A program made the position numbers and the translations under genes. DNA of 64,000 bases from Enterobacteria phage KhF1. This document shows, piece after piece, positions 8,796 through 61,310 of this stretch. Position 1 is the first letter of the stretch. Each line of letters begins with the position of its first letter. Location of the stretch: the sequence record KT184313.1. One strand, written 5' to 3'. The notes below the pieces were generated by a model. It was not told the origin of the DNA. It saw only the letters and a program-made list of their open reading frames with translations, and made no database searches.

Positions 8796-9056
8796 GTGAA
8801 CAATAAGGTTAAGAGTTGTGTGAAAGCAATGGTTGCACTTGGAGTAATTTTTCTGGCTGGCTGTAACCCATCTTATGAAAACAAAGATGCCTCTTACAGC
8901 CTCCCTCCAGAGATGCAAGACTGCAAAATCTACAAACTCAATGGGGATGCTATAAGCAGGGATATTGTTGTTGTCAGATGCCCAAACTCTCAAACAACAA
9001 CATCTTATAGATATGGCAAAAATGGTCAATCACACACTACTGTTATTGATGGATGA
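8796..9056 (+). CDS. putative lipoprotein
   Basis: Signal peptide with lipobox-like LAGC (MVALGVIFLAGCNPS). Confidence 0.5.
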   Translation: MNNKVKSCVKAMVALGVIFLAGCNPSYENKDASYSLPPEMQDCKIYKLNGDAISRDIVVVRCPNSQTTTSYRYGKNGQSHTTVIDG

Positions 9057-12756: not shown

Positions 12757-13140
12757 ATGAAAAAGATTTTATTAGCTGCTGCAATGGTTATGGTAATGAA
12801 TTTACCAGTCAATGCAACAGAACTTCCAAATGTGGACTTATCAGGTGTTCCAGAAGACACTTGCCAGATTGTTAAAGGTGTTGCCCTATCTAAAGGTGAA
12901 CTACTTAAACCAATCTCTGAAGAGTCTTTAACAGAGATGACTGATAAGGTAACTGACTATCAGTATCGTGTTCTTGCAGAGTATTTCCTGCAATCTGCAA
13001 ATATTAAAGAGAAGCACCCTGATGATATTGATGTACAGGCTATGCTCAATCATCGTATCCAGTTTAAAGAAGATTTGATGCAAAAAGCTATGTATGGTGT
13101 TGAGTATTTCTTAGAAAACAGAAGCTGCACAGGTATTTGA
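12757..13140 (+). CDS. putative secreted protein
   Basis: N-terminal signal peptide MKKILLAAAMVMVMNLPVNA. Confidence 0.5.
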   Translation: MKKILLAAAMVMVMNLPVNATELPNVDLSGVPEDTCQIVKGVALSKGELLKPISEESLTEMTDKVTDYQYRVLAEYFLQSANIKEKHPDDIDVQAMLNHRIQFKEDLMQKAMYGVEYFLENRSCTGI

Positions 13141-15340: not shown

Positions 15341-16240
15341 ATGTCACAAGCAGATTCAAGTTATAAAAATATCCTGAACCATGTTTTATCAGTCGGTGAA
15401 CTGCGTACTACACGAACTGGAGATGTTATCTCTGCATTCGCTCCACCTCAGTTTCGTTTTGATATGAGGACTGGTTTTCCACTATTGACATCTAAACAGG
15501 TGTTTACACGGCAAGTTATTGGGGAAGCTTTATGGTTCCTGAACGGTGAGAATAAGCTTGGTGAACTCCGTTACCGTACTTGGGGTGAAAATGATGGAGA
15601 ACGCTGGACTATCTGGTCTGATGATTTTAAGCGCTGGTTAAGCTCTAATTATTCTTCTGAACAAGATTGGTTAGAAGATGCAGGTGGAAGAATCTATGGG
15701 GTTCAGTGGAGAAACTTTGAAGGTCATAATGGTTGTGTTGTAGACCAGTTAGAAACCCTAGTAACAAAGATGAAAGGTGATATCACAGACCGTTACATGC
15801 TTGTTAATGCTTGGAATGCAGCAGATATTGCAGCAAACTCAATGGCTTTAGCACCTTGTCATGTCCTGTTTCAGATTTATATTACTAATGAAGGTGAAGT
15901 AGATTTGCAATGGTATCAGCGTTCTGTAGACACCTTTTTAGGACTTCCGTTTAACATTGCGTCTTATGGTTTTATTCTGGAAGTTCTTTGCAAGATGACT
16001 GGATATACTCCACGATACTTGATAGGTGTCTTTGGAGATACCCAGATTTATCAGAATCATATGAAGCAGGTTTATGAACTGATGAACAATGAAGAGTTTC
16101 ATGCACCTACTTTTGAGATTGGTATACCACTTAATAATTTAAGTGACTTAAAACATCTTACTGCAAGCGACTTTATTGGTGGCATTAACAACTACCAACA
16201 TGCAGGGAAGATTGAAGCACCTCTGTCAGTAGGCAAGTAA
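15341..16240 (+). CDS. thyA: thymidylate synthase
   Basis: Active-site region LAPCHVLFQIY and overall ThyA-like length. Confidence 0.85.
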   Translation: MSQADSSYKNILNHVLSVGELRTTRTGDVISAFAPPQFRFDMRTGFPLLTSKQVFTRQVIGEALWFLNGENKLGELRYRTWGENDGERWTIWSDDFKRWLSSNYSSEQDWLEDAGGRIYGVQWRNFEGHNGCVVDQLETLVTKMKGDITDRYMLVNAWNAADIAANSMALAPCHVLFQIYITNEGEVDLQWYQRSVDTFLGLPFNIASYGFILEVLCKMTGYTPRYLIGVFGDTQIYQNHMKQVYELMNNEEFHAPTFEIGIPLNNLSDLKHLTASDFIGGINNYQHAGKIEAPLSVGK

Positions 16241-16242
16241 AA

Positions 16243-16278
16243 CAAAAAAGGCTCCCGTAAAAAGGAGCCTTAAATTTT
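16243..16278. terminator. bidirectional rho-independent terminator between convergent genes
   Basis: GGCTCC-cgtaaaaa-GGAGCC hairpin flanked by A-run and T-run. Confidence 0.7.
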
Positions 16279-16648
16279 ATCTTTCAGTATTCTTTGTGTT
16301 CTTTTCAGTAATAGCTTGGAGGGCTGATACTGATTGAGCCAGATTGTTCACACTGTCAGAGAATTTATCAAGAGTTTTGGTAAGTTTTGCGTTTTCACCC
16401 TTAACATTCTCTAACTGAACTTTCTGGTTCTCCATCCCTAGCTGAATCAGTCTCATGTCAGACTGTAAATCACGAATAGCTGAATAGTTACTTTTGGAAT
16501 AATTATCTAGCTGCTGTAACTTTGTTGTGACAGACACTTCTTGTTTACCACTTGAAACCTGCATCGTGGTATACATCCCAATAACACTAAAAATACCAAC
16601 TACAATTGCACCAATATTATTTTTAAAAGCTTCCTCTAGCCACTTCAT
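16277..16648 (-). CDS. membrane-anchored coiled-coil protein (possible i-spanin-like or tail-fibre accessory)
   Basis: N-terminal TM segment IGAIVVGIFSVIGMYTT then long coiled-coil-like region. Confidence 0.4.
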   Translation of the reverse strand: MKWLEEAFKNNIGAIVVGIFSVIGMYTTMQVSSGKQEVSVTTKLQQLDNYSKSNYSAIRDLQSDMRLIQLGMENQKVQLENVKGENAKLTKTLDKFSDSVNNLAQSVSALQAITEKNTKNTER

Positions 16649-16843
16649 TTATTTCTCCCCCTTAAAAGCTTTTTCTAAGTTATCTACGAACTCATCATCA
16701 ATAGGTGTGTCTGTTTTACTCGCAAGGTATCTTGCAAGCTTAAAGAACACTTTCTCAATCATGTATTCACTTAGAAGGGATAAAATGAGTTTCCAGAAGA
16801 AGCTACCTAGATTTTTTAGAAGAATTGCTAGGATTGTAGGCAT
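16649..16843 (-). CDS. small hydrophobic protein (possible holin-like)
   Basis: 64 aa with hydrophobic N-terminal half. Confidence 0.35.
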   Translation of the reverse strand: MPTILAILLKNLGSFFWKLILSLLSEYMIEKVFFKLARYLASKTDTPIDDEFVDNLEKAFKGEK

Positions 16844-16922
16844 TTAATCACCTCATCAGCCAAGATGGTGAGAATACCCATAAAAAATATTAACACCATC
16901 TCAACAATCAGTCAACAAGGGA

Positions 16923-19307
16923 TTAAGCAGTTCTTACCCAAGCCATTAACTTGTAGAACTGGTTAGTAACACTAAATGCTGAACCAGAACCTGTACCACC
17001 AGTGTTACCACTAACTGTATGAGTGTGAGCACCGATACCTACAGAGTGGGTGTGAGCACCAGTGTTACTTGTAGTACCAGACCATGTGTGTGTATGGTTA
17101 CCAGTCGTGTTAGTGTTAGGGAATTTGTTATCAGTTCTGTCAAGCCAGTCAAGAGTTCTTGTCTTATTGTTACCAATAGTGGTATATCCGTACTGAGCAT
17201 CACCACCATTAACCAATAGCAGACCTAAGTGGTGAGCGTGGTTACCAGCAGCACTTGTTGTACCACTTACAGAGTGAGTATGACCACCAGTGCTATTAGT
17301 GTTCTTCGTACCATAATCAAAAGAGGAAGTGGTAGCAGAGAAACTATGGGTGTGTGATGGTAAGTTACCAACAGCTAACGTCACAGAATCTGAACCACCT
17401 GTTGTAGCAACATCTGAACCGTTTGCTGCTGCAATTCTGATAGTTCTACCAACACCATTGTTCAGGTACGTCCAAGTTAGACCAGGAAGTGCTGTATTAG
17501 GGTTAACGTTGCTGTTAAACCACGTTACAATACCTACTGGATAGATTTTATTAAGGTCTGTAGAGTCACTAATTGCTTCTGCAATCTTCTGGTCAGTCTC
17601 TGCTTTAGTGTATGCACCGATATCTGAAGGGGTTGGTTTAAAATCAGTTGTGTAAAGCTGTGCCTCTCCGGCATAGTCACCATTTTTGTCATAGGCATAG
17701 GTAAATGTTGCCAGTCCATTTGAGCCATACACAAAAGAGATTCCTCTTGCATGTGCAGCAGTCTTATTAGAGTGAGCAACATGAATTGCCAATTCTCTCA
17801 GTCCACTAGCAACCTGATTGTTTCTGACAAAACCTGAATATCCAAGATTAAAACCTGAAGGGTTTTCAAGGTTATCTACAGAAACAGTCATTAAGGATTG
17901 GTTTAATAACTGAGTTTTAACAAAATATCTAGCATCTAAGTTAGACCAATCAGAAGGTTGAACTTGACCAGTAATGGTTAGGTTCTTATTAGCCTTAATC
18001 GCTGAAGGCATAAGAGTAATTTGAGTCCCAGAGTAGCTGTTGTTTAATGCCACATCAGTAGAATTTGTGCCACCCACACCTACCCACCACCTAGATACAT
18101 TCTGGGTATCAACACCACGGATATATTGTGGCTGCCCCTGTGTTAAGTTTCTTAATACTACGCCTTCATTATTTGATACAATAGTTTGCACATTCACAAA
18201 TGTGTTAGCAACATTAAGCTTAGGTAGGTTACTCAAAGTTGCTGCCGGAATATATCTAGAGTCAATATTAGTCCAATCCGAAGGTTGAACTTGACCAGTG
18301 ATTCTGAAGTTCTGGTTGACTGAGATATAGCCATTATCAAGTCTGATATTTGAACCGTGTACATAGTTGTGTAGCAGCACAGAGGCTGTGTTATCCCCGT
18401 TCCCTACATACCACCTGTTAGTGTTCTGAGAGTCAACACCCTGAATGAATAGTGAGCTAGTTGTTGCATTTTTCAACCTTAAAGCAGCACTGTCACTGAT
18501 AATAAGTAGGTTTCTGCTAAACGTGTTAGTGCCAGTGAAATTGTTATTCGCAGCTAACTGTGCAAATCTCTGATTAGCAACTGTCTGAGTAAAGTATCTA
18601 GCATCTAAGTTAGAGAAATCTGAAGGTTGAACTTGACCAGTGATTGCTAAAGACTTATTAACAGAGACATTACTTGCAACAGTCAAGGCTGAGTTGTATT
18701 TGTTATTGTACAGCTTTACTTCGTCAGAGCCATTACTACCAATACCAACCCACCATCTAGCCGAACCATCTAGGTTTACACCTTCGATATATTGTGCATT
18801 ATTTGCATTTTGGTTTCTAAGGCGAAGTAAGCTAGCATCACCTTGAATATTTTGAGTTCCAGAGAATGTGTTTGTGATAGCTAGTCTTGCATACCTTGCA
18901 TCATTCTCTTCATTAGTTCTCATCCCAAGTTCATTAGGGCTTGGCTTATTCAGAGTATGATAAACAGTTGCCGACCTTGAAGTGTCTGCAATAGTCAGTT
19001 TAAGGCCATTTGCGTTGATTTTAAAAGTCTTTAAAACATCCCCAATATTAATCTCAGAAGAGCCTGTTGGGTTAAATACTACCTTACCACCATAAAGTAA
19101 CTTAACAATCCCTAAGTCACCCGCCATAGTGCTGCCAGCAATCTGAACAAATCTTTCAAGTTTAAAAGATGCTAAGAAATCTTGATAGGTCATTCGACGG
19201 TCTTCATCGCCAAGCATTTCAGGTCTCTTTTTAACTCTGACATGAAGAAGGTCATCTGAACGGATTGTATCGATTGAGTTTAATTCACTCAACTTGTAAT
19301 CTGCCAT
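16923..19307 (-). CDS. tail fibre protein with internal repeats and C-terminal His-x-His repeats
   Basis: Four copies of ...ITGQVQPSDWSNLDARYF...; C-terminal HTHSVSG/NHTHTWSG/AHTHSVGIGAHTHTVSG repeats. Confidence 0.75.
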   Translation of the reverse strand: MADYKLSELNSIDTIRSDDLLHVRVKKRPEMLGDEDRRMTYQDFLASFKLERFVQIAGSTMAGDLGIVKLLYGGKVVFNPTGSSEINIGDVLKTFKINANGLKLTIADTSRSATVYHTLNKPSPNELGMRTNEENDARYARLAITNTFSGTQNIQGDASLLRLRNQNANNAQYIEGVNLDGSARWWVGIGSNGSDEVKLYNNKYNSALTVASNVSVNKSLAITGQVQPSDFSNLDARYFTQTVANQRFAQLAANNNFTGTNTFSRNLLIISDSAALRLKNATTSSLFIQGVDSQNTNRWYVGNGDNTASVLLHNYVHGSNIRLDNGYISVNQNFRITGQVQPSDWTNIDSRYIPAATLSNLPKLNVANTFVNVQTIVSNNEGVVLRNLTQGQPQYIRGVDTQNVSRWWVGVGGTNSTDVALNNSYSGTQITLMPSAIKANKNLTITGQVQPSDWSNLDARYFVKTQLLNQSLMTVSVDNLENPSGFNLGYSGFVRNNQVASGLRELAIHVAHSNKTAAHARGISFVYGSNGLATFTYAYDKNGDYAGEAQLYTTDFKPTPSDIGAYTKAETDQKIAEAISDSTDLNKIYPVGIVTWFNSNVNPNTALPGLTWTYLNNGVGRTIRIAAANGSDVATTGGSDSVTLAVGNLPSHTHSFSATTSSFDYGTKNTNSTGGHTHSVSGTTSAAGNHAHHLGLLLVNGGDAQYGYTTIGNNKTRTLDWLDRTDNKFPNTNTTGNHTHTWSGTTSNTGAHTHSVGIGAHTHTVSGNTGGTGSGSAFSVTNQFYKLMAWVRTA

Positions 19308-19353: not shown

Positions 19354-20541
19354 TTAAGCTGTTCTCTGCCATACATACAGTACGAAGGATGGCTGCTCAA
19401 TGTTAAAAGCTTGTCCACCACCAACACTGTTAGTGTTCCCGCTATGCGTATGCTCAGAAGAAGAAACTGTTACAGTACCATTGTGTGTATGTGAACCAAT
19501 ACCAACCGTATGGCTGTGAGCACCAATACCAACCGTGTGGTTGTGGTTACCAGTCGTGTTAGTGGTCACACTGAAAGAGTGGGTGTGTGAACCAGCAACT
19601 TCACAGACAGCATCTGCTGAGTACCATGATTGGTCATTCCTTGAAGACCAAACCATTGCAGGTCTTTCCGATAGACCACCACCTGATTCATAGGTCAATC
19701 TGTGGTTATGAGCACCAGCAGAACTTGTTGACCCACTACCAACATGGTTATGGTTACCAGTCGTGTTAGTGGTCTTAGTTCCATAGTCAAAAGAGTTAGT
19801 AGTCTTAGTTCCATAATCAAAAGTTGAAATTGACACCGTTGCATTATGAGTATGACCACCACCACTAAGAGACACAGAGTGTGAGTGTTGTGGCATGTTA
19901 TTAACTGACAAAGTGACAGTTGAAGCACCAAATACAGAGCCTGCTGGTCTTGTATCAGAGTCATAACCAACCAATGCTCTACCTTTTGAAACTAACTCCC
20001 AAGTTCCTCCACAAATTAAATACGTAGAAGGGTTTGCAGAGTTCATGGAAAGATGGATAGTACCTACTGGATAAGAAGCCTGAACAGCCTTGTACAAGTT
20101 ATTTACTGCTCTTGCTGTAGCATACTTATCTGCATCTTCGTTATAAAGGTTAGATGTTGTCCAGTTCTGAACATTACTCAATCCTACCTGTGCCTTAGTT
20201 GTATTATGTGGGTTGCTCTTGTCCTGAATATGCTGTTGAACAAGATTATTAACCTCTTCTGAAGACATAATCTGTAGATTTGCTCTTGCCTGAGCTACAT
20301 TAACAATATCTGATAAGTTATTTGCAGCAACTAACTGAAGAGCATTAATAACGTTATCTAAACCAATTTGTGTTTTAGTCACACCATGAGGGTTATTTCT
20401 TAGGCTTGAGTGTGGAGCAAGTAATTGCTCAAGAGTACATCTCTTATCCTCAATACCCTGCTTAAGATGGAAGATATCACTAAGGTCAATTGGTAAGGCT
20501 GCTTGAGGCAAGGCACTAATTTGAATTTCACCTACCGCCAT
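19354..20541 (-). CDS. tail fibre protein (second, HxH-repeat type)
   Basis: HxH repeats (GSHTHSFS, GNHNHTVGIGAHSHTVGIGSHTHNG); C-terminus ...YVWQRTA resembles ...MAWVRTA of the 794-aa fibre. Confidence 0.7.
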   Translation of the reverse strand: MAVGEIQISALPQAALPIDLSDIFHLKQGIEDKRCTLEQLLAPHSSLRNNPHGVTKTQIGLDNVINALQLVAANNLSDIVNVAQARANLQIMSSEEVNNLVQQHIQDKSNPHNTTKAQVGLSNVQNWTTSNLYNEDADKYATARAVNNLYKAVQASYPVGTIHLSMNSANPSTYLICGGTWELVSKGRALVGYDSDTRPAGSVFGASTVTLSVNNMPQHSHSVSLSGGGHTHNATVSISTFDYGTKTTNSFDYGTKTTNTTGNHNHVGSGSTSSAGAHNHRLTYESGGGLSERPAMVWSSRNDQSWYSADAVCEVAGSHTHSFSVTTNTTGNHNHTVGIGAHSHTVGIGSHTHNGTVTVSSSEHTHSGNTNSVGGGQAFNIEQPSFVLYVWQRTA

Positions 20542-41627: not shown

Positions 41628-42185
41628 TTACTTTCTCAGTGGATGAATAAAGAATGCCAACATAACTCTTTCCCTTGAGAATGCTCTTTCTTCTGGGACA
41701 ACACTTTTTAGTTTCCATCCAATATAAATTCTCCAGTAAAACTGTTTACCAAAGACTTTAATTGATGGGATAAAGGCGAATAATCCCCAAGCATTACTGT
41801 TCCACATTAGGAGATAACCAGTCTGATTATCTTCAGGGTCAGAACTTACGTTGATATTACCTTTCCACTTAGTAACATCTTTTACATCTCTTCCTAATAC
41901 ATGGTAAGAGAAGTTATAAGCTTTGTTTCTCCAGAGCCATCCGACTCTTTGCATGTAGACGCCTAGTTTACCAATCCATCTAATATTAGCCCATCTTTTA
42001 ACGTGACCTTCATCACCATCAATTGGGTTGTCATATGTCTCCATCCATCTGAACCCGAAAGGTAAGTGTCCTTTCTTCTCACTGTAGAATGGAACTACAA
42101 AAGGTGCTAAGATAACTGCTAAGATTGCTGCAAATGGCTCTAACAAAGCTAAGAAAATCCATGAAACATATTTTAAGTATCTCAT
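41628..42185 (-). CDS. integral membrane protein
   Basis: N-terminal hydrophobic helices WIFLALLEPFAAILAVILAPFVVPF; Trp-rich. Confidence 0.5.
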   Translation of the reverse strand: MRYLKYVSWIFLALLEPFAAILAVILAPFVVPFYSEKKGHLPFGFRWMETYDNPIDGDEGHVKRWANIRWIGKLGVYMQRVGWLWRNKAYNFSYHVLGRDVKDVTKWKGNINVSSDPEDNQTGYLLMWNSNAWGLFAFIPSIKVFGKQFYWRIYIGWKLKSVVPEERAFSRERVMLAFFIHPLRK

Positions 42186-49087: not shown

Positions 49088-49968
49088 TTAAAGCAAAGAC
49101 TTACCCAGACTTCAAAGAGTTTGTGAAGGGCTTCATTGCAAACGTAAAGGCTGGTAAGAGGTATGATTTTAGAACATATCAAGAGGCTATTTTACCACTT
49201 ACCTATAGCTCGTATTGGCCTGAAGCTGATATTGCAGAAGTTGAGAAGTTTGACTATAAACCAGACTATAAAGTTCCTTTTAGTGATGAACTCCTTTACA
49301 GTGTTGGTGCACAGATGAGAACTGCTGATTTCTTCATGGATTTGCAGTATGCAATCATCAATGGTAAAGATGTTGACACTATTTACTGTGAATGGTTGGC
49401 AAGAGTTAAGCCGTTCTCAATGTTGAATGCTAAGCTGAAGGATGCTATCAAGCCACCAGCAATTACTCAGCAACCAACAGGTCAAACAGTCAATGAGGGT
49501 GGCACACTTACCCTAAGCATTCTAGCAACTAACGCCACTGGATATCAGTGGAAGAAGGATGGTGAGGATATCCCTAGTGCCAATTCTGCAACTTACACAA
49601 AACAGTCAGTAGCACCTTCTGATGCTGGTTCATACACTTGTGTTGTATCTGGAGAGGGTGGAACAAGTGTTACCTCAGATGCAGCAACAGTGACTGTGAA
49701 TGCACTTCCAGTAATCACTCAACAGCCAACCAATCAAGAAATCACTGAAGGTGAAACCTTAACGCTGAATGTTGTGGCAACAGGTGCGACAGGTTACCAG
49801 TGGAAGAAAGGTGAGGAAGACATCCTCGATGCAACTACTGCAACTTACACCAAAGAAGGTGCAACCGCTGCTGATTCAGGAAGCTACACCTGTGTAGTGA
49901 CTGGTGCAGGTGGTTCTGTAACGTCTAATGCTGCAACAGTTACTGTTAACCCAGCAGGGGAGGCATAA
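49084..49968 (+). CDS. protein with N-terminal paralogous domain and two tandem Ig-like domains
   Basis: Two ~85-aa repeats each with GYQWKK...ATYT...GSYTCVV (Ig I-set-like strand pattern). Confidence 0.6.
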   Translation: MIKAKTYPDFKEFVKGFIANVKAGKRYDFRTYQEAILPLTYSSYWPEADIAEVEKFDYKPDYKVPFSDELLYSVGAQMRTADFFMDLQYAIINGKDVDTIYCEWLARVKPFSMLNAKLKDAIKPPAITQQPTGQTVNEGGTLTLSILATNATGYQWKKDGEDIPSANSATYTKQSVAPSDAGSYTCVVSGEGGTSVTSDAATVTVNALPVITQQPTNQEITEGETLTLNVVATGATGYQWKKGEEDILDATTATYTKEGATAADSGSYTCVVTGAGGSVTSNAATVTVNPAGEA

Positions 49969-50432
49969 TGCAACTCTCAAGAAAAGGTTTAGAAGCTATT
50001 AAGTTCTTCGAAGGTCTTGAGTTAGAGGCTTACGAAGACTCTGCCGGAATCCCAACAATCGGGTATGGTACAATTCGTATTGACGGAAAACCTGTTAAGA
50101 TGGGAATGAAAATCACCGCTGAACAAGCTGAACAGTATCTTCTCGCGGATGTTGAGAAGTTTGTTGCAGCAGTGAACAAAGCTATCAAGGTTCCAACTAC
50201 TCAGAATGAGTTCGATGCACTTGTAAGTGAAACATACAACATCGGTATCACAGCTATGCAGGATTCCACATTTATCAAGCGCCACAATGCTGGTAATAAG
50301 GTAGGTTGTGCAGAAGCTATGCAGTGGTGGAACAAGGTTACAGTCAAAGGTAAGAAGGTCACTTCAAACGGTCTTAAAAACAGACGTAGGATGGAAGCTG
50401 ACATTTATCTTGACAGTGTATACCCAAAGTAA
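49968..50432 (+). CDS. endolysin, T4 lysozyme family (GH24)
   Basis: N-terminal FEGLELEAYEDSAGIPTIGYGT catalytic Glu/Asp/Thr signature; about 154 aa. Confidence 0.8.
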   Translation: MQLSRKGLEAIKFFEGLELEAYEDSAGIPTIGYGTIRIDGKPVKMGMKITAEQAEQYLLADVEKFVAAVNKAIKVPTTQNEFDALVSETYNIGITAMQDSTFIKRHNAGNKVGCAEAMQWWNKVTVKGKKVTSNGLKNRRRMEADIYLDSVYPK

Positions 50433-52556: not shown

Positions 52557-52775
52557 ATGAAAAAACTAACTACAGTTGAAGATTACTACAAACTGTCCCT
52601 ATTAGAACAATATCGTAGGAGTCAGAATATCAGAAAATGCTATGGTAAACACGCTGAAGGTGACTTTTACCGTTGCTACGATGCAGATTTAAAAGGTGTA
52701 ACACCTAGAGGGAAAGTCCTGCAAAGACTTGTTGACCTTGAGTGGAATAAACGATTGAGAGGGATTGGAAAATGA
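52557..52775 (+). CDS. hypothetical protein
   Basis: ORF track. Confidence 0.4.
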   Translation: MKKLTTVEDYYKLSLLEQYRRSQNIRKCYGKHAEGDFYRCYDADLKGVTPRGKVLQRLVDLEWNKRLRGIGK

Positions 52776-53275
52776 TTTATGAAGAAAGATACAAAATAGA
52801 CTATCAAGATACTCGTCATCACACCTCTTTGAGAGTAACCAAACCAAATGGGGATACTGGTATCATAGCGCATTTTGGTGGTGATTATTGGTATGGTACA
52901 GGTTGCTTTGAAGGCTACACTCAAGAATACTTGAAAGCTTTCTACAGAGACTTTACAAATGACTACAACAGGGTTGTTGAAGAGAAGAATAAGTGCATTA
53001 AGCATGAATACCATGCCAGAGGTTGTCTGAATATTGCTATGATACTGGTTTTCTTCTTAGCAACATTACTAGCTGTATCAGCAATCAGCTACATAGCTCA
53101 AGACTTGACCATTACACAGATTACTGCAAAGTTGCATGATGTCTGGTACTTGTATGCTGTTCCTTTAGCTGGTATCATAATCTCACTACTAAGATTCAGA
53201 GTTCATAAGAAACGGCTTAAGGACTCTGAGGTTAAACTTGAAGAGGTAAGTAAAGAATGCAACCTACAATTATAG
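52772..53275 (+). CDS. membrane protein
   Basis: Two C-terminal hydrophobic helices (IAMILVFFLATLLAVSAI, YLYAVPLAGIIISLL). Confidence 0.45.
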   Translation: MIYEERYKIDYQDTRHHTSLRVTKPNGDTGIIAHFGGDYWYGTGCFEGYTQEYLKAFYRDFTNDYNRVVEEKNKCIKHEYHARGCLNIAMILVFFLATLLAVSAISYIAQDLTITQITAKLHDVWYLYAVPLAGIIISLLRFRVHKKRLKDSEVKLEEVSKECNLQL

Positions 53276-60977: not shown

Positions 60978-61310
60978 TCAACAGTTTTGTTTTCGTTTGC
61001 TCAATTCTTGAACAATTACAGCGTAGTAGTCTTTTAAGTCACTGACATTTAAAGCATTTATCAGAGAATTATAATCATCAACTAACTGAAAATCATCTTT
61101 GAAGATGTCACTTATCTGATAGGTTTTCGCTTTGTATCTGAAGCTCATCTCTAGCCGCTTTATTTGCTCATCACTGAGACGCCCTAGAAAGCTCTCTACA
61201 AGGTTATTGCTGACCTGCTGTGTGATTGCCTTATTTGCTAGATTATAGGCTTTATATGCCTTATATAGCGCGAAAATGGCAATGATTGCAGTGATACCAG
61301 TCATTAACAT
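60978..61310 (-). CDS. small membrane protein
   Basis: N-terminal TM helix MLMTGITAIIAIFALY. Confidence 0.5.
   Translation of the reverse strand: MLMTGITAIIAIFALYKAYKAYNLANKAITQQVSNNLVESFLGRLSDEQIKRLEMSFRYKAKTYQISDIFKDDFQLVDDYNSLINALNVSDLKDYYAVIVQELSKRKQNC

Follow-up and report, generated by a model that had tools for sequence, protein, structure and literature searches.

In the 64,000-nucleotide stretch of Enterobacteria phage KhF1 that we analysed (KT184313.1; hereafter the window), we found two adjacent minus-strand genes that probably serve in host lysis. The first encodes a protein of 64 amino acids (aa) from the family of phage PM2 lysis factor P18, or gp l (16649..16843; Felix O1 ORF78), and the second encodes a 123-aa protein with a single transmembrane domain (TMD) (16277..16648; Felix O1 ORF79/gp79). 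With moderate confidence, we read the pair as a lysis cassette, in which the 123-aa protein would be the best holin candidate for a soluble lysozyme and the 64-aa protein a P18-like accessory lysis factor. Holin function of the 123-aa protein specifically has roughly even odds.

Sequence comparison gave good support for the 64-aa protein as a homologue of PM2 P18. When a 42-sequence family alignment was compared with PM2 gp l (51 aa) using hhalign, the match had a probability of 90.5% (E=1.4e-6, 38% identity over 42 columns), and pairwise BLASTP gave E=2e-6. The motif FFxLAxxxAxxTxTxxDDEF is conserved in the protein, and across the 42 family sequences, conservation reaches at least 90% at F34, T44, D49 and D50. 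The protein also matched phrog_402 (1.4e-22). The PF26925 model (Phage_PM2_Gpl) is precomputed on all 23 close homologues, and its name was seen in contig annotations; our own Pfam scan of the 64-aa protein, run with a Pfam set that lacks the PF26925 model, gave no match. AlphaFold2 predicted three helices (residues 2-23, 26-43 and 47-63) with a predicted local distance difference test (pLDDT) score of 89. A fold search with this model against BFVD and PDB returned uncharacterised family members only, with zero solved structures among them.

A preliminary description of this DNA, made from the sequence alone, had called the 64-aa protein hydrophobic. We found this to be overstated: the N-terminal helix is weakly hydrophobic, but it carries two lysines and its mean Kyte-Doolittle value of 1.56 falls below the cut-off of 1.6 that we used for a TMD. 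Neither a lipobox nor a signal peptide was found in the protein. PM2 gp l has been described as having no TMD.

A profile search of 1.84 billion representatives placed the P18-like family in 238 clusters, with proteins of 51-92 aa. One match, the 4303-aa P0153, was rejected as a false positive, a repetitive adhesin aligned only through its 'TDDEF' motif. P18 homologues in PaP3, Felix O1, RB49 and three cyanomyoviruses were already reported by Krupovic and Bamford in 2007 (PMC1950889), and the roughly 400 phage records with a P18-like homologue that we inspected all label it 'hypothetical'. Two later papers (PMC9502842, PMC6356626), which sum up work from 2007, describe PM2 P17 (gp k) as a distinct holin class that permeabilises the cytoplasmic membrane, and P18 (gp l) as a lysis factor without which the outer membrane is not disrupted.

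The two open reading frames (ORFs) lie after the tail-fibre genes, as the preliminary description had placed them, and their coordinates, sizes and minus-strand orientation were all confirmed. Upstream are two minus-strand tail-fibre genes (19354..20541 and 16923..19307), with PHROG tail-fibre matches of E=0 and 1e-137 and a Pfam gp37_trimer match of 1.6e-78. Both genes of the pair start with ATG, the stop codon of the 64-aa gene abuts the start codon of the 123-aa gene (TAAATG), and strong Shine-Dalgarno sequences precede the 64-aa and 123-aa genes (GAGGTGAT and GGGGGAG, respectively). To judge from the sequence, translation of the two genes is coupled, and both end at a single terminator, a strong bidirectional intrinsic terminator at 16248..16271 with a 9-bp GC-rich stem and a T-run on the minus strand. 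Beyond it, the convergent gene thyA (15341..16240) opposes the pair, and frd is also convergent.

Both genes are real and conserved. In addition to the match of the 64-aa protein, the 123-aa protein matched phrog_4038 (1.3e-71), and homologues of both genes occur in about 260 phage genomes. The pair is kept at the same place in distant Ounavirinae, namely Mooglevirus, Kolesnikvirus (phiEa21-4 gp73/gp74) and Hafnia phage Zyzzx, where identity is 48-52% for the 64-aa protein and 25-27% for the 123-aa protein.

To the P18 homology is added the company that P18-like genes keep in other phages, where they lie next to holin genes in lineages that are independent of one another. PM2 itself has gp k/P17 followed by gp l/P18, and the KhF1 pair resembles this module: its first product is homologous to P18 in sequence, and in both phages the P18-type gene has as its neighbour, in the same orientation, a gene whose small product combines one N-terminal TMD with a helical tail, be it short or long. 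The differences are that the order is reversed, with P17 before P18 in PM2 and the P18-like gene before the TMD protein in the window; that the 64-aa protein has about 13 extra N-terminal residues, which complete its weakly hydrophobic helix; and that the 123-aa protein is more than twice the length of P17, with no detectable sequence similarity to it. Furthermore, PM2 lacks an annotated spanin pair, and Felix O1-like phages carry such a pair.

The RB49-like Krischvirus phages offer a second parallel. In RB49 and Ec_Makalu_001, gp37 is followed by the P18-like gene (RB49p252/Dc5), a T holin (phrog_860, 5e-88) and a terminator, and the window likewise has a distal tail-fibre gene, a P18-like gene, a gene for a single-TMD protein and a terminator. 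However, the protein in the 't' position here has 123 aa and one predicted long helix, compared with 218 aa for T, and shows no sequence similarity to it. We observed that the RB49 P18-like gene (NC_005066 154699..154938; L021 2492..2731) is annotated twice with different start codons, as the 79-aa RB49p252 and the 65-aa 'dc5', and this might be a dual-start arrangement as in some holin/antiholin genes.

In Pseudomonas phage Bjorn, the P18-like Gp62 (hhalign 93%) is followed by the 82-aa Gp61, which begins with MKWL and continues with a TMD and a tail predicted to be helical. The resemblance to the window covers a P18-like gene followed by an overlapping gene, the MKWL start, an acidic residue plus N, a Gly/Ala/Ser/Thr-rich TMD and the helical tail. 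Homology between the 123-aa family and Gp61 was rejected for want of statistical support (hhalign 4.5%), so that the shared architecture and the N-terminal 'MKW' remain; the Bjorn pair also differs in the length of Gp61 (82 aa versus 123 aa) and in its location inside a podophage structural module. In the T7-like Vibrio phage phiV141, a gene for a holin-like protein (TMD and charged C-terminus) and then a P18-like gene lie between the tail fibre and the terminase. P18-like genes abut an endolysin gene in Vibrio phages 1.036.O (phrog_315, 2.7e-47) and 381E49-1, and in the metagenomic contigs L011 and L012 (PF00959 and Peptidase_M15_4).

The 123-aa protein has the architecture that the preliminary description had given it, with one N-terminal TMD followed by a coiled-coil-like helix. 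The TMD spans residues ~12-30 (mean Kyte-Doolittle 1.62) and is conserved in the Zyzzx and phiEa21-4 homologues. AlphaFold2 predicted helices at residues 2-32 and 40-122 with low confidence (pLDDT 53), and heptad-like hydrophobic periodicity was observed. Its remaining profile matches (DivIC, SMC, tape measure and the Rz-like phrog_739 at E=0.009) are noise from coiled-coil composition, and no stretch of the phrog_739 match passes on its own.

The finding is already known as annotation, from genome announcements for the putative holin and from the 2007 paper for the P18 homology. In the Felix O1 genome paper, gp79 is one of five proteins put forward as the possible holin (PMC3185647), and the Moogle, Michonne and Mushroom announcements from the Center for Phage Technology (Texas A&M) call the homologue of the 123-aa protein a putative class III holin (PMC4319497, PMC4591319, PMC4392139), with an N-in, C-out topology stated for the Mushroom protein (PMC4392139). 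The name 'holin' or 'putative holin' is repeated for homologues in many records and in UniRef, while others say hypothetical.

A holin is needed in this phage. The T4-type lysozyme at 49968..50432 (plus strand; PF00959 4.5e-41; phrog_7 endolysin 4.1e-58) lacks a hydrophobic segment at its N-terminus and is encoded 33 kb away from the gene pair, with no adjoining membrane protein, in agreement with the earlier remark that no obvious holin stands beside it. The endolysin is soluble and therefore needs a holin. The earlier suggestion that the lysis functions are split across the genome is supported by the lysis links of both genes and by Felix O1-like genome papers, which make the same statement outright (PMC4319497, PMC4392139, PMC3185647). 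The Moogle, Michonne and Mushroom announcements describe the lysis system as T4-like, with genes 'scattered around the genome' (PMC4319497, PMC4591319, PMC4392139).

The spanins are found at yet another place. Moogle and Bas63 have an overlapped i-/o-spanin pair (0089/0090 in Bas63) annotated beside polynucleotide kinase and rIIB, and synteny with Bas63 maps this pair ~1.5 kb past the right end of the window; a search with the Moogle i-spanin gave no match inside the window. Homologues of the Moogle i-spanin are present in 260 records of Ounavirinae, a count equal to that for the 123-aa gene. The likeness to T4 comprises a soluble lysozyme far from the pair, a spanin pair next to polynucleotide kinase/rIIB, and the presence of rIIA and rIIB. 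This placing of the spanins corresponds to T4, in which pseT.2 and pseT.3 lie beside pseT.

In the model that we infer, the pair would be a small lysis cassette that closes the block of tail-fibre genes at its distal end, and the 123-aa protein would be a single-pass inner-membrane protein, predicted to begin with a short N-terminus and to continue through one TMD into a long, helical C-terminal domain. This holin candidate would build up in the inner membrane late in infection and would then permeabilise it, releasing the cytoplasmic lysozyme. The 64-aa P18-like accessory factor would be made together with the holin and would act at or after the holin step. The layout would be T4-like, with endolysin, holin and spanins scattered and the putative holin gene following the tail-fibre genes.

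Several observations weigh against this model. The 123-aa protein matched no holin or Rz/spanin family in PHROGs, Pfam or NCBIfam, and homology to T (hhalign 0.5% against the T homologue of Krischvirus Ec_Makalu_001) and to PM2 P17 (hhalign 0.3%) was rejected. The charges flanking its TMD are near balance (two K/R on the N-terminal side and one or two on the C-terminal side) and do not fix its topology. In the structural model, the long helix may, with low confidence, look more like an i-spanin than like the periplasmic domain of T, which is globular. The BASEL annotation of Bas63 labels both genes (bas63_0028 and bas63_0029) 'hypothetical', and we found no experiments on either Felix O1-type protein in the literature that we searched.

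Expression and neighbourhood count on the same side. By reverse transcription PCR (RT-PCR) of Felix O1, ORF79 was classed at 5 minutes and ORF78 at 25 minutes after infection (PMC3185647), which is odd for a simple late co-transcript; the same table puts the major capsid gene early, and it may resolve timing poorly. In Grimontviridae, SU10-like contigs, Lahexavirus, the S-CAM9 cyanophage, L014 and L019, the P18-like gene has no lysis or TMD neighbour and lies amid structural or unknown genes. Finally, the outer-membrane role of P18 may not transfer to the 64-aa protein, because Felix O1-like and RB49-like phages already have spanins.

The architecture of the 123-aa protein was initially likened to that of an i-spanin, and its N-terminal TMD followed by a long coiled-coil-like helix does resemble the i-spanin (Rz) of a two-component spanin. 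The pair could accordingly be a second, non-canonical outer-membrane-disruption system, made of an i-spanin-like coiled coil and the P18-like protein, with the holin elsewhere. The weak Rz-like match to phrog_739 (E=0.009) and the description of PM2 P18 as acting on the outer membrane in PMC9502842 and PMC6356626 would fit, and a substitute holin could be the 167-aa product of 52772..53275, with its two TMDs and charged C-terminus, whose Bas63 counterpart gp116 has been speculated to be lysis-related (PMC11482910). We nevertheless consider this unlikely. Unlike an i-spanin gene, the 123-aa gene has no embedded, overlapping or adjacent o-spanin gene: downstream of it there are only the terminator and convergent thyA, and the sole lipobox-like ORF embedded in it (16507..16599; TTG start, 30 aa, 'LLGC') was rejected as a chance occurrence that is interrupted by stops in Moogle and absent from Zyzzx and phiEa21-4. 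The phrog_739 match looks like composition noise, leaving no significant Rz-family match. The P18-like protein has neither signal peptide nor lipobox, and in RB49-like phages its gene is paired with the T holin and not with a spanin-like protein. Such a system would also be redundant, as a canonical spanin pair is present elsewhere in all relatives. The i-spanin reading was therefore not upheld.

The location directly after the tail-fibre genes, and the occurrence of P18-like genes in structural modules near adaptor, needle or fibre genes (Grimontviridae, SU10-like contigs, Lahexavirus, Bjornvirus), would instead suit fibre-associated or infection-related membrane proteins, which could help fibres to assemble or mature at the membrane or could serve superinfection exclusion. 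This possibility, raised in part by the preliminary description, appears quite improbable to us. PM2 P18 is a lysis factor according to three papers (PMC9502842, PMC6356626, PMC1950889), P18-like genes abut endolysins or holins in phages with unrelated tails and in the tailless PM2, and gp78 and gp79 are not listed in Felix O1 virion proteomics (PMC3185647). The 48-52% identity of the 64-aa protein across differing hosts and fibres misfits a receptor-specific exclusion factor. The position itself is common for lysis genes, which often close a late tail-fibre operon, as do T4 t (after genes 37/38) and T7 17.5 (after gene 17). As for the two proteins exchanging roles, the P18-like gene is the only one for a small hydrophobic or amphipathic protein by the endolysin in 1.036.O, L011 and L012, and the 64-aa protein could on that account be the holin itself, with the 123-aa protein as an antiholin regulator or unrelated. 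We regard this as very improbable, given a marginally hydrophobic N-terminal helix (family mean Kyte-Doolittle 1.3-2.1) with conserved lysines, the assignment of the PM2 holin role to P17 and not P18 in PMC9502842, and the T-family holin homologue (phrog_860) right beside the P18-like gene in RB49-like phages.

A broader reading is possible, and we offer it tentatively, with more doubt than belief: the P18-like family (PF26925) may represent a widespread, uncharacterised type of lysis factor that is coupled to holins and not a spanin substitute, and the KhF1 pair may be a PM2-type P17/P18 module, in which a three-helix protein modulates or completes a single-TMD holin. P18-like proteins occur in at least 238 clusters, from myophages, podophages, T7-like phages, cyanophages and corticoviruses. 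Their genes repeatedly lie beside holins of different classes, and both Felix O1-like and RB49-like phages have canonical spanins in addition.

Upstream of the 64-aa gene, before the fibre gene is reached, lies a putative control region (16863..16915, minus strand), which contains a promoter-like site and an inverted repeat. The 79-bp spacer between these genes is conserved from Felixounavirus to Moogle. It contains a sigma-70-like TTGACT-17-TAATAT at 16915..16887, in a region where promoter-like sites are no more numerous than in shuffled sequences, and an inverted repeat of 8-9 bp (16901..16894 and 16870..16863) with the -10 hexamer in its loop. In phiEa21-4 and Zyzzx, terminator-like hairpins were found in the equivalent spacer. 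These sequence features suggest that the gene pair is regulated apart from the fibre genes. The terminator after the pair is annotated as t79/t80 in Felix O1 (PMC3185647), and the XTG1 record annotates it as well.

Felix O1-like phages find wide use in the diagnostics and biocontrol of Salmonella and E. coli, and gp79 is the best candidate for their holin. Together with its P18-like partner, it would give studies of lysis timing, or engineering work, two defined genes to aim at. Propagating the P18 link would improve the annotation of a family spread over very different phages, and it raises the question of what role a PM2-type outer-membrane lysis factor has in phages already equipped with spanins.

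None of six further membrane or secreted proteins from the window matched a holin or spanin family in Pfam, NCBIfam or PHROGs. The 167-aa protein (52772..53275, plus strand; phrog_4343, unknown function) is encoded 2.3 kb downstream of the endolysin, and has a soluble N-terminal part and two TMDs at residues ~88-106 and 124-142 ahead of its charged C-terminus. It corresponds to Bas63 gp116, which was conditionally essential in E. coli S17-1 in the PhageMaP preprint where the lysis-related role was speculated (PMC11482910), and it is a possible alternative holin. An 86-aa predicted lipoprotein (8796..9056, plus strand; phrog_902, unknown function), with a signal sequence and the lipobox 'FLAGC', is encoded in the replication region just after the DNA polymerase. 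It was rejected as a spanin partner, with no i-spanin nearby, and could be a superinfection-exclusion lipoprotein. Proteins of unknown function were also found at 60978..61310 (minus strand; 110 aa, N-terminal TMD, phrog_4375), at 41628..42185 (minus strand; 185-aa DUF7338 membrane protein, PF24027 1e-61) and at 12757..13140 (plus strand; 127 aa, signal-peptide-like N-terminus, phrog_4332).

The window is part of a Felix O1-like myophage genome (Felixounavirus) and is 96-99% identical to sequenced phages. The 6.1-kb stretch around the gene pair has 96-97% identity to Felixounavirus genomes such as LF82P3, XTG1 and KhF3, and 265 phage records match it, nearly all of them Felix O1-like and from Escherichia, Salmonella, Shigella and Citrobacter. 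GU169904 (Staphylococcus phage SA1), OK283618 (Listeria phage LPML1) and two 'Campylobacter' records hold Felix O1-like sequence despite their host labels; SA1 reaches 98% aa identity and 91% nucleotide identity, and LPML1 is classified in Ounavirinae. This suggests that the hosts of these records are mislabelled or that the assemblies are chimeric. In the window, we also observed that both tail-fibre proteins, which have Pfam Phage_fiber and Gp10_C matches, end in His-rich 'HTHS/HxH' repeats; repeats of this kind bind metal in T4 gp37-type fibre tips.

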